Numbered from the stretch's first letter, positions 3,836 to 55,805 are shown. The stretch: 58,994 nt of DNA from Candidatus Komeilibacteria bacterium (GCA_030688315.1 JAUYIT010000017.1:68845-127838); one strand, 5' to 3'. Numbers and translations are program-made. The notes: generated from the sequence alone by a model not told the origin.

Positions 3836-4891
3836 ATGAATTCGCCTCTTAAAATAATTTTAACCGGCGGCGGTACGCTGGGTTCGGTTAGTCCGCTGAT
3901 TGCCGTCTGGCAGGAATTGGCCAGTCAAAACATCAGCGTAGAGGCCTTGTTGGTCGGTACTTCCTTTGGCCCGGAAAAAAAGTTTTTACAGCAATATCCG
4001 GCCATAAAATTCGCGGCTATTCCGCAAGCTAAGTTGCGCCGTTATTTTAGTTTGTTGAATTTACTCACGCCCTTACTTTTGGTGGCTGCGTTGATAAAAT
4101 CGTTTTTTATTTTGCATAATTTTAAGCCAGATTTAATTATTTCCGCCGGCGGTTTTACCGGCGTGCCCATAATCTGGCTAGGAAAGATGTTCGGCTATAA
4201 AATAATTATTCATCAGTTGGATCTTCAACCCACTTTAAGTAATAAGCTAACTCAAAGTCAGGCCGATTTAATTACCGTCACTTTTGATAAATCCTTAAAT
4301 GATTTTCCGAAAAAGAAAACCGTAGTCATTGGGCCTTTGTTAAGGCAAGAAGCGGTGCTGGAAAAACATCATATTGCGGACAGCAAAAAAACGCTTTTGG
4401 TTTTGGGCGGCGGAACGGGTGCTTTATCTTTAAATAAACTGATTGTTGAGGCCTTACCTTTGCTTAATAAGGATATTAACGTTTTTCAGGTGACCGGTCA
4501 GGGTAAAAAGGTGCTTGAGGGTGATTTACCCAATTATCGTCAGGTTGAGTTTTTGACTACGGATTATTATCAAAAAATCTCTCAAGCCGATCTAGTTTTA
4601 TCTCGAGCCGGCCTATCAACGCTGTTGGAACTGTCCTATTTTGCCAAACCGGTTATAATTGTGGCCTTGCCTAACAGCCATCAGGAAGTTAACGCCGGGT
4701 ATTATGAAGTAAACAAAGCGGCCATAAATTTAAAACAAACTGCTCTGACTCCGCCTATGTTAGCCGAAAAAATTAATGAACTGTTTAACAATCAAACGGC
4801 CTTGAAAGAATTAGCTAATAATATTAAGATGATAGCTCCGGCAAACGGCGCGGCTAAGATGGTCCGCGAGATTTTGAAGCTTACTGAATAA
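3836..4891 (+). CDS. murG: UDP-GlcNAc:lipid I N-acetylglucosaminyltransferase MurG
   Basis: N-terminal GGGTLGSVSPLIAV and second glycine loop LGGGTGALSLN (GT28 pattern). dcw synteny. Confidence 0.9.
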   Translation: MNSPLKIILTGGGTLGSVSPLIAVWQELASQNISVEALLVGTSFGPEKKFLQQYPAIKFAAIPQAKLRRYFSLLNLLTPLLLVAALIKSFFILHNFKPDLIISAGGFTGVPIIWLGKMFGYKIIIHQLDLQPTLSNKLTQSQADLITVTFDKSLNDFPKKKTVVIGPLLRQEAVLEKHHIADSKKTLLVLGGGTGALSLNKLIVEALPLLNKDINVFQVTGQGKKVLEGDLPNYRQVEFLTTDYYQKISQADLVLSRAGLSTLLELSYFAKPVIIVALPNSHQEVNAGYYEVNKAAINLKQTALTPPMLAEKINELFNNQTALKELANNIKMIAPANGAAKMVREILKLTE

Positions 4892-4896
4892 TTTGT

Positions 4897-6273
4897 ATGG
4901 ATTTTTCTAAGATCAATAAAGTTCACGTGATTGGCATTGGCGGCATCGGCGTTTCGGCCGTGGCTAAGATTTTTTTGGAACAAGGAAAAGCCGTGACCGG
5001 TTCTGATGTCAGTTCTAGCGAACTGACGCAAAATTTGGAAAAAAGGGGAGTCAAAATTTATTATAATCATGAAGCTTCAAATTTAGCCGAGGATGTGGAT
5101 TTGCTGGTTTATTCACCTGCAGTGCCGGAAAACAATCCAGAACGGCAAAAGGCGGCCGAATTAAATATTCAACAAAAAAGCTATCCGGAATTTTTAGGCG
5201 TTTATTCCCATGATAAAAAAACCATTGCCGTATCCGGTACTAACGGTAAATCTACCACCACAGCCATGCTGGGTAAAATTTTTATTGCCGCCGGACTGGA
5301 TCCTACTATTATTGTGGGCACTCAAGTGGCTGGGTTTGACGGTAATTTTAGGCACGGCAATTCTGATATTCTCATCGTGGAGGCGTGCGAGTGGAAAGGT
5401 CATATGCTAAATTTATTGCCACAGACCATTGTTTTAACCAATTTGGAACCGGATCATTTGGATTTTTATAAAAATCTAGATGAACTTAAGCATTATTTTC
5501 AAAAATACATCAATAATCTGCCGGTAGCGGAAGGTAAGTTGATTTATAATGCCGATGACACTAGCTTAAAATCATTAATCAAAAACAAGGGCTACGCGGT
5601 TAAAAGCTGGTCAGTTAATTTTGAAGACGGGGATTATCGGGCTACTGATATTGCTTTTAAAAAACAAAAAATCGATTTTAAGGTTAATGGGCATTTGTTG
5701 AGTTTAAAGGTTCCTGGTACTTTTAATATTTATAACGCCCTGGCCGCGGCCGCCTGCGCCCGGGAATTTAAAATTGACTGGAAAATAATTAAACAATCAT
5801 TGGCGGAATTTTCCGGATCATGGCGAAGGTTTGAAAAAATCGGACCGGTTAAAGGCAAAAAAAATACTCTGGTTATTTCCGATTACGCTCATCATCCCAC
5901 CGCCCTCAAAGGTACTCTTAAAGCGGCCAAGGATTTTTATCCCGATAAACGTTTGGTGGTGGCTTTTCAACCGCATCATTTTGATCGCACCGCCAAACTG
6001 TTTGACGATTTTGCCAAAAGTTTTGCTTGGGCCGATGTGTTGGTAATCTGTCAGGTTTATGATGTGGCCGGCCGCGAAGCCGACGGCCAACGCACCATTG
6101 GCAGTCAACAGTTGGTTAACGCTATTCAAAAACTGAATCCTTTAAAAGAAATTTATTACGCGCCCGATTTGGAGCAAACCGAAAAAATGCTGCGCGAAAA
6201 AATCCAACCCAATGATTTAATCCTCATTGTCGGGGCAGGGGATATTGATAACATTGCCAGAAATCTGGTTTAA
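4897..6273 (+). CDS. murC: UDP-N-acetylmuramate--L-alanine ligase MurC
   Basis: HVIGIGGIGVSAVAKIF N-terminus, P-loop SGTNGKSTTTAM, DYAHHPT motif. Confidence 0.92.
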   Translation: MDFSKINKVHVIGIGGIGVSAVAKIFLEQGKAVTGSDVSSSELTQNLEKRGVKIYYNHEASNLAEDVDLLVYSPAVPENNPERQKAAELNIQQKSYPEFLGVYSHDKKTIAVSGTNGKSTTTAMLGKIFIAAGLDPTIIVGTQVAGFDGNFRHGNSDILIVEACEWKGHMLNLLPQTIVLTNLEPDHLDFYKNLDELKHYFQKYINNLPVAEGKLIYNADDTSLKSLIKNKGYAVKSWSVNFEDGDYRATDIAFKKQKIDFKVNGHLLSLKVPGTFNIYNALAAAACAREFKIDWKIIKQSLAEFSGSWRRFEKIGPVKGKKNTLVISDYAHHPTALKGTLKAAKDFYPDKRLVVAFQPHHFDRTAKLFDDFAKSFAWADVLVICQVYDVAGREADGQRTIGSQQLVNAIQKLNPLKEIYYAPDLEQTEKMLREKIQPNDLILIVGAGDIDNIARNLV

Positions 6274-36703: not shown

Positions 36704-38367
36704 GGTTTATAATTCAACAGTTGCTTTAAATATATTTCAGAACGGCGGCCTTCAAATAAGACAACCATTTCCCGGTCAATAACTTTTTTTAAATAATCAA
36801 TCGCCTCTCCCCCGCCCGTGCCGGTCAAAATAATTTTATCCGCCGGAATACGACTGGCAACTAATTTATTATTGACAAACTTGGAAAAATTCTTGCCGCA
36901 TAAAATCACTTTATCCAGATTATCAATCTGCGCTAATGCCTTAACGATTTTTAAATGGACCGCTTCCTGATCAACGCCTAGCTCCAGGATATCGTCCAAA
37001 ATAACGATTTTAGGCGCTTTAAATTGGTCTAAGGTTGCTAAGGCGGCCAGCACGCCGCTGGGATTGGCATTATAACTGTCATCAATCAAAGTCAGTTTGC
37101 CCCGCTCAATAACATTCATGGTCCGTTCAACCGGTTCCAGGTTTTGAATACCCCGAGCTAACTCCTCAAGTTTTAAACCGCAAGCCAAGCCGACGCCTAT
37201 TGCCGCCAAAATATTTAAAATATTGTGTTTGCCGATCAATTTAGTCCGGCAATTAACTTCTTGCCCTGCGTAAACAAGTTTAAAATTCTGCCAGCTGTTT
37301 TGTTGGACAATGCTTTTGGCCGACAAATCGGTTTGGCCATTGTTTATTCCGTAAGTCAGAACTTTTCTGTCTGCCGGTAATTTAATATTCCTGATCAGGT
37401 TATTATCATAATTTAAAATCAGCCAGGCGCCAGTGCGCGAAAAATTGATTATTTCCGATTTGGCCTTAACAATATTTTCCTGACTCCCGAATAAGGCGCT
37501 GTGCTGTTGATCCAATCCGGTCATTACCGCCACATCGGGTGGGCAAATTTGGCAGATTTTTTTTATTTCTCCGATTTTGTAAGCGGCCATTTCCGCGATA
37601 AATATTTCCTCCTTAGAAAAATCATGGTTTAAAATGGTTTGCGCCACGCCCATTTCACTGTTGTTATTTTTGGCTGTTTTGACCGTTTTTAGACTGGTCT
37701 TAATAAGCTGATAGGCAAACTCCTTCACGCTGGTTTTGCCATAACTGCCGGTAATGCCGACTATTTTTAAACCGGTCAATGATGCTATTTTACGCTTGGC
37801 GCTGGCAATCGCTTGGCGTTTTAAAAAATAAGACAAGGGGTAAATTATCAAAACAACTAGACCGATAATCAGCACTGACAGCATATTAATGGCCAGACCC
37901 GCCTTTAAGGAAGAATTAAGGATAGCAGCGGAAAAAACAAAGTAAAACACCAACGTTGAAATAGTCCAAGATAAGGCCAAAATCAAGGAAGCTTTTCCGG
38001 TAAAGTTTGGCTTAAAAAAAGAACGCCTGATTAATGAAACCAAAAACCAACTCAACTCCACGGCAAAAATAACACTGACGAATTTAAGAGCTGTCAATGA
38101 ACCTACGCTAAAAACGTACAATGAACCGAAGGCGTTAAACTGCCACTGCCAGGCCGCGGCGGCCAGCCAATCAAATAAAAACAAACTAGCCAGCGCCAGC
38201 GTTTCAAAAACAAAACTCCGGTTAAACAGCGCGGCGCGACCTTCCGGAGTTTTTATAAAATACCAAAAACGGTCCAACCGGTATTCCTTTAACTGCCACA
38301 AAGCGGTCCAAGACAACAGATTCTTAAAAATCACCGCGGCAAATAAAATAAAAAATAAAATTTCCAT
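36700..38367 (-). CDS. murF: UDP-MurNAc-tripeptide--D-Ala-D-Ala ligase MurF with an N-terminal polytopic membrane domain
   Basis: GITGSYGKTSVKEF P-loop, IAEMAAY, HNILNILAA and DDSYNANPSG (MurF signature), preceded by about 190 aa containing roughly 5 hydrophobic helices. Confidence 0.85.
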   Translation of the reverse strand: MEILFFILFAAVIFKNLLSWTALWQLKEYRLDRFWYFIKTPEGRAALFNRSFVFETLALASLFLFDWLAAAAWQWQFNAFGSLYVFSVGSLTALKFVSVIFAVELSWFLVSLIRRSFFKPNFTGKASLILALSWTISTLVFYFVFSAAILNSSLKAGLAINMLSVLIIGLVVLIIYPLSYFLKRQAIASAKRKIASLTGLKIVGITGSYGKTSVKEFAYQLIKTSLKTVKTAKNNNSEMGVAQTILNHDFSKEEIFIAEMAAYKIGEIKKICQICPPDVAVMTGLDQQHSALFGSQENIVKAKSEIINFSRTGAWLILNYDNNLIRNIKLPADRKVLTYGINNGQTDLSAKSIVQQNSWQNFKLVYAGQEVNCRTKLIGKHNILNILAAIGVGLACGLKLEELARGIQNLEPVERTMNVIERGKLTLIDDSYNANPSGVLAALATLDQFKAPKIVILDDILELGVDQEAVHLKIVKALAQIDNLDKVILCGKNFSKFVNNKLVASRIPADKIILTGTGGGEAIDYLKKVIDREMVVLFEGRRSEIYLKQLLNYKP

Positions 38368-53025: not shown

Positions 53026-53577
53026 TTAACGCTTGGCAAACTGCGGCGCGCGTCTGGCGCGTTTGAGACCGGGCTTTTTACGTTCCTTTTTACGGGAATC
53101 TCTGGTTAACCAGCCCTCGCCGCGCAAAGTTTTCTTTAAAGTTTCATCCATCTTTAACAGCGCTCTGGAAATACCGTGCCGCACCGCTTCGGCCTGTGAT
53201 CTAATGCCGCCGCCAGCTACTTTAACGCTGATAAAATATTTGCCCAGTAAATTCAATTTTTTCAGGGGCTGTTCCACAATCTGATGATATTCCGGAAAAG
53301 GAAACCGCGCCAAGTAATCCTTGCCGTCAACCAGCAAATCGGTGCGGGCATCCTTAAGGTAAAGGCGGACTCTGGCCACGGCGGTTTTGCGCTTGCCAAC
53401 AGCAAAGATATAAGGCAATTTTTTATCGTGTTTAGCTGGCTTAACTTCCAAAACAGTTTCAGGTTCTTCAACCTGAACCGGTTTAGCAACTTTAACATCC
53501 TCTGTTTTTTCAGCAACCGGAACAGCTTTTTTTCTAGCCGGTTTAACGGGTTTAACGGCGGTAGCGGTAGTGGTCAT
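53026..53577 (-). CDS. rpsI: 30S ribosomal protein S9 with a ~55-aa K/P/V/E-rich N-terminal extension
   Basis: GKRKTAVARV..., GGGIRSQAEAVRHGISRAL and the C-terminal ...RRAPQFAKR are canonical S9. Confidence 0.92.
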   Translation of the reverse strand: MTTTATAVKPVKPARKKAVPVAEKTEDVKVAKPVQVEEPETVLEVKPAKHDKKLPYIFAVGKRKTAVARVRLYLKDARTDLLVDGKDYLARFPFPEYHQIVEQPLKKLNLLGKYFISVKVAGGGIRSQAEAVRHGISRALLKMDETLKKTLRGEGWLTRDSRKKERKKPGLKRARRAPQFAKR

Positions 53578-53947: not shown

Positions 53948-54298
53948 TTAAACCAGTTCAATCTGCACCATGGGGGCGCTATCGCCCAAACGGTTGCCTA
54001 ACTTGATAATTCTTAAATAACCACCGGATCTTTCCTTATATCTTGGTCCTAAAACTTCAAATATCTTTTTAACCGCGCTTTTAATGGGCAAGCGGGCTAG
54101 TAACACGCGGCGATTGGCCAAAGTATCGGTTTTACCGCGGGTAATCACTTTTTCCACCAACGGCTTAATGGCCTTAGCTTTGGCGGTAGTGGTTTTTATT
54201 TTTTCATATAAAACAACCTGGCAAATTAAATTTGACAGCAAGGCCTTCCGCGGGGCCTTTTTTCTATCCAAAGTGACTTTTTTCTTGCGATGATTCAT
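53948..54298 (-). CDS. rplQ: 50S ribosomal protein L17
   Basis: MNHRKKKVTLDRK...ALLSNL...TTTAKAKAIKPLVEKVIT...GGYLRIIKLGNRLGD is canonical L17. Confidence 0.92.
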   Translation of the reverse strand: MNHRKKKVTLDRKKAPRKALLSNLICQVVLYEKIKTTTAKAKAIKPLVEKVITRGKTDTLANRRVLLARLPIKSAVKKIFEVLGPRYKERSGGYLRIIKLGNRLGDSAPMVQIELV

Positions 54299-54326
54299 AT
54301 TCTTTATCTAAAACGTCAATCATTAA

Positions 54327-55142
54327 TTATTCGGCTTTTTTAGGTCGGCCGCGCTTTTTGCTTTTTTTATCGTCATCCTCGCTTTCAGCGTCAGCATCCT
54401 CCTCACCTTCCTCTTCCTTAACCTTACCGGCTTTGCTTGTTTTAACAGGGGCCTGCTCGGCGGAATTTTCGTAAACAAAGGAAAAATGCTTTAACAAAAT
54501 ATCGCTCGCCTCGGCCATGGCATCTTTGGGCGAAACAGTGCCGTCGGTTTCAATCTGCAACACCAGGCGTTCAAAATCAGTGCGCTCTCCCAAACGAATG
54601 TTATCAATGTCAAAACCGACTTTGGTAAGCGGGGTGTACAGCGCGTCAACCATGATGGTGCCCAAATCAACTTTTTCCTTAACCCGATCTTCTACCGTCA
54701 CATAGCCGTAGCCCTTTTGCGCGATAAATTCCATTTCCATATCGGCGGATTTATCGGTCAAAGTGGCGATAATTTGCGAGGGGTTGGCGATTTCCACCAA
54801 AGAATTTTTTTCAATATCCCCAGCCGTAACCGTTTTTTCACCTTTTACCTTAAGGGTTAAAACAACCGGCTCATCGCTAAAAACCTTGACCCTGATTTTT
54901 TTAATATTCAGCGCCAAACCCACTGCATCTTCTTTGACGTGTGGCAGGGAGGAAAATTCGTGCATCACGCCCTTCAGCTTAAACGAGGTGATGGCCGAAC
55001 CGCTGATTGAAGAAAGCAAAACGCGTCTTAAGGCGTTACCAATGGTTACGCCGTAGCCCGGATAGCACGGTTCCACCGTAACGGTGGCGCGATTGCCTTT
55101 GACTTCCTTAAACTCTAATTTTGACGGAAGTAATATACTCAT
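54327..55142 (-). CDS. rpoA: DNA-directed RNA polymerase alpha subunit: N-terminal domain only, plus an acidic/AT-hook tail
   Basis: GNALRRVLLSSI, ...ERLVLQIETDGTVSPKDA...ILLKHFSFV give a complete alpha-NTD. The protein ends 40 aa later (…EEEGEEDADAESEDDDKKSKKRGRPKKAE) with no helix-hairpin-helix CTD. Confidence 0.9.
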   Translation of the reverse strand: MSILLPSKLEFKEVKGNRATVTVEPCYPGYGVTIGNALRRVLLSSISGSAITSFKLKGVMHEFSSLPHVKEDAVGLALNIKKIRVKVFSDEPVVLTLKVKGEKTVTAGDIEKNSLVEIANPSQIIATLTDKSADMEMEFIAQKGYGYVTVEDRVKEKVDLGTIMVDALYTPLTKVGFDIDNIRLGERTDFERLVLQIETDGTVSPKDAMAEASDILLKHFSFVYENSAEQAPVKTSKAGKVKEEEGEEDADAESEDDDKKSKKRGRPKKAE

Positions 55143-55169: not shown

Positions 55170-55805
55170 TTAACGGGAATAAAATTCAATAATTAAAGTG
55201 GGGTCAAAGGTGGACACCAAATCATCCTTGGCCGGCAAGCTGACCATTTTACCGTTGAACTCGACGGCGTTTAAAGAAAGCCAACCCGGAGTTTCCACTT
55301 TGGCCAGTTTGGGCAAACGATCCTGCCAATACTTATTAACCATGGCCGAGGGTTTGATGCCGATGATATTGCCCACATTGACGTTGGCGCTAGGGATGCC
55401 TAAAACCTTGCTGTTAACGGTAATATGGCCGTGATTGACCAGCTGTCTGGCGCTATCGCGGCTATCGGCAAAACCGAGACGGTAGATAACGTTATCCAAC
55501 CGGGTTTCCAGCAATTTAATCAGATTTTCCGAAGTATTACCGGCCATTTTACCGGCTTTAACAAAGTAGCGATGGAATTCCCTTTCCAACAAACGGTAGG
55601 TTTTTTTGGCCTTCTGTTTTTCACGCAAACGTTCGCCGTAACCGGATTGGCGCTTGCCTTTTTTAAGGTTGGGGCCGTGCATGCCGGGCGGATAAGGCCT
55701 TTTGATCATCGGATTTTTGGGCGAAGTGTTTTTTTCGCCTTTCAAAAAAAGATTCACGCCTTCGCGCCGTTCCTGCTTGGATTTTGGTTCTAAATTCCTA
55801 CCCAT
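55170..55805 (-). CDS. rpsD: 30S ribosomal protein S4
   Basis: YGERLREKQKAKKTY, RLDNVIYRLGFA.SR..ARQLV.HGH are canonical S4. Confidence 0.95.
   Translation of the reverse strand: MGRNLEPKSKQERREGVNLFLKGEKNTSPKNPMIKRPYPPGMHGPNLKKGKRQSGYGERLREKQKAKKTYRLLEREFHRYFVKAGKMAGNTSENLIKLLETRLDNVIYRLGFADSRDSARQLVNHGHITVNSKVLGIPSANVNVGNIIGIKPSAMVNKYWQDRLPKLAKVETPGWLSLNAVEFNGKMVSLPAKDDLVSTFDPTLIIEFYSR

Follow-up and report, generated by a model that had tools for sequence, protein, structure and literature searches.

The RNA polymerase alpha subunit (RpoA) of a Candidatus Komeilibacteria bacterium consists of the full assembly domain and a tail of about 40 residues predicted to be disordered; the alpha-CTD is missing. 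The AT-hook-like peptide at the end of the tail hints at a mode of promoter-DNA holding not yet described for a bacterial polymerase. In bacterial transcription, the alpha-CTD is treated as near-universal, as the domain that reads UP elements and docks many activators. Here, a large and widespread lineage does without it altogether, and one branch of that lineage keeps a minor-groove-associated peptide at the same position, under strong selection. The gene lies in a stretch of 58,994 nucleotides (GCA_030688315.1, JAUYIT010000017.1:68845-127838), which is called the window below.

An RpoA reduced to its assembly domain and a tail

In the window, Pfam matches place rpoA in the conserved operon order rpsD, rpoA, rplQ. 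The features of the locus, counted from the first letter of the window, are as follows.

53948..54298, minus strand: rplQ (ribosomal protein L17; Ribosomal_L17, PF01196, 1.9e-32), the usual downstream neighbour
54299..54326, no strand: 28-nt spacer between rpoA and rplQ, from the sequence; too short for a CTD
54327..55142, minus strand: rpoA CDS, 271 aa plus TAA stop, from the ORF list
54330..54449, minus strand: tail, residues 232-271, predicted disordered (AlphaFold2; no Pfam domain), in place of the linker and alpha-CTD
54336..54368, minus strand: basic tip KKSKKRGRPKK, residues 259-269, containing the AT-hook core RGRP
54369..54416, minus strand: acidic run EEEGEEDADAESEDDD, residues 243-258, from the translation
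54450..55142, minus strand: alpha N-terminal domain (NTD), residues 1-231, with dimerisation and insert domains, complete (AlphaFold2 and alignment)
55170..55805, minus strand: rpsD (ribosomal protein S4; PF00163 and PF01479), the usual upstream neighbour

The product matched PF01000 (insert domain, 3.4e-28) and PF01193 (dimerisation domain, 1.1e-20) in the Pfam scan, with no match to PF03118 (RNA_pol_A_CTD, helix-hairpin-helix), and reached 250.2 bits against the NCBIfam model TIGR02027 (cut-off 227.8). Coverage by the NCBIfam rpoA models, which have 298-344 positions, stops at model positions 232-249, and solved alpha subunits align over query residues 4-237 only (residues 9-246 in the E. 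coli chain, which has 329). In an AlphaFold2 model built from 60 homologues, block-mean pLDDT was 80-95 over residues 1-230, the last helix spanning residues 205-228. The genome contains a single rpoA copy; as the product is the sole alpha orthologue, we consider it an RpoA of reduced architecture despite the missing PF03118. A preliminary description of this DNA had proposed a complete alpha-NTD (here represented by PF01000 and PF01193 only) without a CTD, an ORF ending after the tail, and rplQ following after 28 nt (the Ribosomal_L17 match and spacer listed above); all of these proposals held.

In public sources, close homologues are named Komeilibacteria, Kerfeldbacteria, Veblenbacteria and Uhrbacteria, the first of which is placed by NCBI in the Parcubacteria group, and the proteins are annotated plainly as "DNA-directed RNA polymerase subunit alpha". 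Two further observations concern the locus and its counterparts. An ORF two genes downstream of rplQ (53026-53577, minus strand), judged ribosomal protein S9-like by its C-terminal sequence alone, carries some 55 additional residues at its N-terminus, enriched in Lys, Pro, Val, Ala and Glu; this is a further charged, low-complexity extension of a protein central to information processing. In genome G407, contig C37 carries two inverted rpoA matches with identical scores, at 4756-5103 (+) and 37834-38181 (-); the pair stems either from an inverted duplication or from an error in assembly.

A six-frame search of the genome's own assembly (1.02 Mb, 41 contigs, 93.55% complete) retrieved no alpha-CTD match at E<=10, while the same search retrieved matches in 14 out of 14 control genomes, above the cut-off in 10 of them. 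Database relatives at 90, 84 and 79% identity share the end position of the protein and the hook. Among 41 genomes of the order, only one PF03118 match exceeded the cut-off; the frame that holds it, of 1228 aa, is distinct from rpoA. For the class, an even sample of 141 genomes yielded 138 RpoAs, none of which matched PF03118 at E<=0.1. An even sample of 301 genomes of the phylum contained the domain in 264: it was found in 261 out of 282 genomes outside the window's class and was absent from 16 out of 19 within it, the other three having the domain outside rpoA. The loss of the CTD is thus a feature of the clade and not an assembly error. Beyond the class, the RpoAs of two lineages (f45 and f55) are also CTD-less, with Lys-rich tails.

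These data bear directly on whether the short rpoA is artefactual, through a frameshift, through mis-assembly or through a split of the gene that leaves its CTD elsewhere. The draft state of the genome and the occurrence of alpha-CTD-like domains in other ORFs of 11 out of 141 class genomes would leave room for such an explanation. It is countered by the same gene end in 138 out of 138 class genomes, single-contig ones included, by the position of rplQ only 28 nt downstream and by the empty six-frame search, and we give it next to no chance: it is refuted for practical purposes. The circumstances that the preliminary description had named as fatal to its reading, a hidden CTD continuation or a separate alpha-CTD ORF, are contradicted by the shared end and hook of relatives at 79-90% identity and by the six-frame result, respectively. 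The comparison across Patescibacteria that it had proposed likewise gave the contrast between class and phylum reported above.

PF03118 also appeared in contexts of separate interest. In family f24 of the same phylum (L170-L172), those RpoAs with a weak or no PF03118 score nevertheless retain a divergent helix-hairpin-helix-like segment at the end; the alpha-CTD of these proteins has diverged rather than been lost. The 11 class genomes with an alpha-CTD-like domain outside rpoA do not include the genome studied here. Four ORFs of 195-467 aa join sigma-70 region 4 (PF04545) to a C-terminal alpha-CTD; other ORFs, of 158-241 aa, contain an alpha-CTD alone, and in one of them the genome search gave an additional PF03118 match of lower score within the frame. 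At these ORFs, local GC content lies between 0.39 and 0.62, and part of them may therefore be foreign or mobile. Stand-alone or sigma-fused, they could provide an alpha-CTD in trans. The loci are the following.

L007, 263-1663, minus strand: ORF with PF03118 outside rpoA
L159, 433-1734, plus strand: ORF with PF03118 outside rpoA
L160, 1402-2604, minus strand: ORF with PF03118 outside rpoA
L163, 1465-2049, minus strand: ORF with PF03118 outside rpoA
L016, L018, L161, L162, L164 and L165: further loci with PF03118 outside rpoA

Composition, conservation and distribution of the tail

In the AlphaFold2 model, the tail lacks predicted secondary structure and has pLDDT below 50 nearly throughout (residues 232-260 and 262-265); the motif is thus placed by prediction in a disordered, non-globular segment (residues 232-271), as is typical of AT-hooks. 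The acidic run is followed by KKSKKRGRPKKAE; the protein has the C-terminus ...DILLKHFSFVYENSAEQAPVKTSKAGKVKEEEGEEDADAESEDDDKKSKKRGRPKKAE, followed by TAA, and the translated 271-aa ORF ends ...HFSFVYENSAEQAPVKTSKAGKVKEEEGEEDADAESEDDDKKSKKRGRPKKAE. The tether before the basic run comprises 33 residues with a net charge of -7, close to the median of -6 among the 22 hook-bearing RpoAs of the class, and its sequence is not conserved among relatives. The RGRP core corresponds to residues 264-267 (54342-54353) within KKRGRPKK (residues 262-269), and the translation agrees with the earlier placement of a Lys/Arg-flanked RGRP at these nucleotides.

An R-G-R-P core with Lys/Arg flanks is the sequence signature of an AT-hook. 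The Pfam profile AT_hook (PF02178) scored 13.1 bits on residues 262-270, under its gathering cut-off of 17.4, and the four class RpoAs with noted AT_hook rows scored 13.1 to 17.1 bits; since a single motif of 13 positions seldom passes a whole-protein cut-off, this score weighs little against membership. In the own genome, [RK]GRP[RK] turned up in 5 out of the 4283 stop-to-stop frames that reach 60 aa or more, and only the RpoA occurrence is Lys/Arg-flanked; the motif, which is found again in relatives, is no chance match. HMGA-like domains combine several hooks with an acidic region. The RpoA tail has the acidic region and one hook per chain, although two hooks are present in a relative of 330 aa (P0100). 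It would work like a minimal HMGA module, and it is not a member of the HMGA family.

We assessed conservation on 92 distinct hook-bearing sequences, obtained by pooling the 120 best database homologues (own protein included) with the class sample. Along K-K-R-G-R-P-K-K, conservation was 0.90, 0.97, 1.00, 1.00, 1.00, 1.00, 0.92 and 0.99, while positions -10 to -6 before the hook were variable and mostly acidic; the hook pentamer lay a median of 3 residues from the C-terminus. In a 60-sequence alignment, R264, G265, R266, P267 and K269 were invariant, and the conservation of the motif extends to about 50% NTD identity. Across 21 hooks of the class sample, all 6 Arg, 3 Gly and 4 Pro codons are used, and this saturation of synonymous codons places the constraint on the peptide, not on the DNA. 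On this comparative evidence, KKRGRPKK is under strong selection as a peptide. The tail might alternatively be a functionless, neutral low-complexity remnant of the former inter-domain linker, as the unconserved linker sequence, the range of tail lengths (0-79 aa) and the RpoAs without a tail would allow. An eight-residue motif kept at 90-100% despite saturated synonymous change, down to about 50% NTD identity, makes this very improbable; the neutral reading is strongly disfavoured.

The canonical hook ([RK]GRP[RK] in the last 60 residues) was present in 71 of the 120 best database homologues, own protein included; of the other 49, nine have degenerate GR forms and most of the remaining 40 are Lys-rich. 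Tail type tracks families within the order, as listed here.

Family f1 (the window's): 9 out of 11 with a canonical hook; one same-genus member (G001) with KKKGRTKK, lacking the Pro, and one Lys-rich
Family f2: 0 out of 8 canonical; short Lys patch
Family f3: KKRGRKTK, in one genome
Family f4: 1 out of 1 canonical
Family f5: 0 out of 7 canonical; Lys-rich or purely acidic
Family f6: 4 out of 6 canonical; 2 with PGRPKK
Family f7: 0 out of 7 canonical; Lys-rich tails, some with histone-H1-like repeats of the KKAKPAKK type

In three f7 RpoAs (L209, L210 and L211), tails of histone-H1-like Lys/Ala/Pro repeats stand in the hook's place. Across the class, the 137 complete RpoAs comprise 22 with a canonical hook, nine with degenerate GR forms, 64 with another Lys/Arg cluster and 42 without a basic tip, some of the last ending directly after the NTD. 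The median tail has 37 aa. Among the 118 tails with 20 aa or more, 74% have a net negative proximal part and 71% a charge of +3 or more over the final 12 residues, which makes an acidic tether with a basic tip the common design of the class. In an NTD tree of 144 rows, from which L124 (cut at a contig end) and L081 (N-terminally cut) were omitted, the hook was scattered, requiring 16 parsimony changes, at least four of them forced by well-supported branches on a weak backbone; an old hook with frequent losses and a hook gained repeatedly fit this pattern alike. The hook is, to judge by sequence, dispensable over evolutionary time. The expectation that RGRP would be conserved among relatives was therefore borne out in the family (9/11) and in the best homologues (71/120), but not class-wide, where only 22 out of 137 RpoAs have it.

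Promoter signals and the proposed role of the tail

The preliminary description had suggested that the tail might be a minimal peptide standing in for the alpha-CTD in UP-element-like contacts in an AT-rich genome. That the motif exists, is conserved and has no second copy of its kind in the genome was confirmed; the AT-rich premise fails, as the genome has 43.45% GC, and across the class the hook is one of several interchangeable basic tips. With crude gene calling, which gave 891 genes and 447 upstream gaps of 70 bp or more (intergenic A/T 0.628), we found more -35/-10 matches on the forward than on the reverse strand (236 vs 147, and 166 vs 71 at a stricter threshold), an excess indicating that sigma-70-type promoters exist. 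No A/T enrichment was detected at -36 to -60 of the predicted promoters (0.63-0.66, vs 0.628 for the background and 0.65-0.67 for the reverse-strand control). The occupancy of A/T runs showed a small bump from -65 to -46 of these promoters (0.38 vs 0.29 at -55 to -46).

Outside the window, on contig C10 of the own genome (G000), phased A5-6 and T5 tracts with a spacing of about 10-11 bp (L158, 3312-3352) lie 326-366 nt upstream of the 16S rRNA 5' end and about 30-70 nt upstream of a candidate promoter, TTGGAA-N16-GATAAT. Among 25 relatives in which the 16S 5' end is present, the median number of A5/T5 tracts upstream of 16S was 6 with a GRP hook (n=9) and 8 without (n=16); being as common without the hook, the tracts do not discriminate by tail type. 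The presence of the hook showed no association with local GC content (p=0.31). As far as predicted promoters and small samples of related genomes can tell, these tests together speak for an anchor of loose specificity rather than for a strict reader of UP elements. As a separate observation on these loci, the 16S matches of two genomes (L228 in G002 and L229 in G004) span 1755 and 1839 nt, compared to 1533 positions in the model, which suggests 16S genes with insertions.

The own genome encodes three sigma-70-family genes. Within it, no OmpR-type effector domain was found, nor any CRP-type domain above the cut-off, the sole match being sub-threshold; in the part of a 2025 survey that concerns them (PMC12531629), full-length CRP/FNR proteins are described as notably absent from the candidate phyla radiation. 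Given the absence from this genome of OmpR-type domains and of CRP-type domains above the cut-off, a loss of classical alpha-CTD-dependent activation is plausible.

By analogy with WhiB7 and CarD, we propose that the tail may serve as a tethered DNA anchor and so take over part of the role of the alpha-CTD, a reading to which we assign a probability of about 0.55. Each polymerase would carry two hooks, one on each alpha subunit, acting as small tethered anchors that occupy the narrow minor groove where DNA is A/T-rich, either upstream of the promoter or next to it. Against this reading stand the weak DNA binding of single AT-hooks by themselves, the dispensability and scattered distribution of the hook, the Pfam score under the cut-off, and the promoter, 16S and GC comparisons above. 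The hook contact would add DNA affinity in place of the alpha-CTD/UP-element contact, while the acidic tether would keep the tip extended and damp non-specific sticking. With no alpha-CTD, there would be no docking site for class I-type activators, and regulation would consequently act through sigma factors or other surfaces. The Lys-rich or histone-H1-like tips of sister families probably do the same job. If they are equivalent, the anchor is likely to be A/T-preferring or largely electrostatic, with no strict sequence reading.

Two other roles have to be weighed against a minor-groove anchor. The tip could be a generic polyanion-binding sticky end that holds on to any DNA, for example in nucleoid retention or sliding, RGRP being one workable form. 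The replacement of canonical (22), degenerate GR (9) and Lys-rich (64/137) tips by one another in the class fits this view, as do the H1-like KKAKPAKK repeats of f7, the failure to find UP-like A/T enrichment at predicted promoters or 16S, and the lack of a link between hook and GC content. Such indifference to sequence is hard to reconcile with an R-G-R-P that is invariant in 92 sequences while neighbouring linker positions drift, or with a motif that is the exact minor-groove-binding core of WhiB7 and CarD, and we consider it rather unlikely. The target might also not be DNA: the tip could bind RNA (the nascent transcript or the ribosome) or an acidic protein partner, or fold back on the acidic run as a switch. 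RNA binding has been reported for AT-hook-like peptides, rpoA lies within a ribosomal protein operon, and the acidic and basic segments of the tail would permit an intramolecular contact. The best-studied bacterial RGRP tails on polymerase, in turn, bind DNA, no partner is known and nothing in the data points to RNA, which makes this option improbable.

The tethered anchor can be extended to the whole class, in a scenario that we offer tentatively and regard as doubtful in its full form. The class would have discarded the folded alpha-CTD at or before its origin and gained a eukaryote-style tether, acidic and disordered, that bears an HMGA-type AT-hook, some families later swapping to histone-H1-like Lys-rich tips, and the core enzyme would read A-tract or narrow-minor-groove DNA with two hooks. 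If so, upstream promoter DNA would be contacted in a third manner, in addition to alpha-CTD/UP elements and to hooks borne by factors; these organisms would be incapable of class I activation, and the sigma-70 region 4/alpha-CTD fusions might supply an alpha-CTD in trans in a few lineages. Should the hook work as proposed here, promoter strength would be set differently in these organisms, and other rules would be needed to predict promoters and regulons in candidate-phyla genomes. It would also be a natural minimal replacement of the alpha-CTD, and a bacterial case of HMGA-like/H1-like tails built into the core transcription enzyme.

Comparison with known alpha subunits and polymerase-bound AT-hooks

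A search of open-access PMC and bioRxiv retrieved no report of an AT-hook in RpoA, or of AT-hooks in connection with Patescibacteria or the candidate phyla radiation. A 2026 review of alpha-like subunits contains neither "AT-hook" nor "CPR", and its relevant passages describe no CTD-less bacterial alpha.

Alpha subunits without a CTD are described in a paper on endosymbiont polymerases (PMC8321222) for Hodgkinia, Tremblaya and microalgal chloroplasts, where they are presented as erosion that accompanies extreme genome reduction. One sentence of the same paper, which cites Nelson and Stegen 2015, adds that the loss "is also present in Parcubacteria". The main text of Nelson and Stegen 2015 contains neither "polymerase" nor "alpha", and two supplementary files only list rpoA as a core gene. 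Like the protein described here, these alphas have lost the CTD and kept the NTD; unlike it, they have no reported replacement element.

The role of the alpha-CTD with UP elements and activators is outlined in the corresponding parts of PMC8321222 and PMC12641261. The present RpoA shares with E. coli-type alpha an alignable NTD, the same position relative to rpsD and rplQ, and a flexible tether ending in an element associated with the A/T minor groove. It differs in that an eight-residue peptide stands in the place of the folded helix-hairpin-helix CTD; with the contacting part cut to this size, there is no surface for class I activators.

Closer parallels are found among factors held on the polymerase. 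As described in the passages on DNA binding in PMC10245118, the C-terminal RGRP hook of mycobacterial WhiB7 binds the A-tract minor groove just upstream of the -35 box and helps promoter use, while the protein itself binds sigma region 4. The likeness lies in a C-terminal RGRP hook on a protein held on the RNA polymerase holoenzyme. WhiB7, however, is a separate inducible Fe-S factor, whereas the RpoA hook belongs constitutively to the core enzyme and, with one on each alpha subunit, would occur twice per polymerase.

In Myxococcus xanthus, CarD attaches to the RNAP beta subunit; according to the parts of PMC4374960 on its domains, an acidic segment that is unfolded precedes its RGRP hooks. 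Like the alpha subunit with its tail, it is thus an RNAP-bound module with a disordered acidic segment and a basic RGRP tip. In CarD, HMGA-like and H1-like domains are reportedly functionally equivalent, as the title of work by Garcia-Heras from 2009 puts it. This replacement, known to us from the title only, is paralleled by the RpoA families f7 and f1. In contrast to RpoA, CarD (with a CarD_CdnL_TRCF N-domain) is an accessory factor with four hooks in a tail of about 140 residues, as opposed to one hook in about 40, and outside the motif the two share no homology. Polymerase-tethered AT-hooks are therefore known; here, the hook is built into the core enzyme itself, in the place of a canonical domain.
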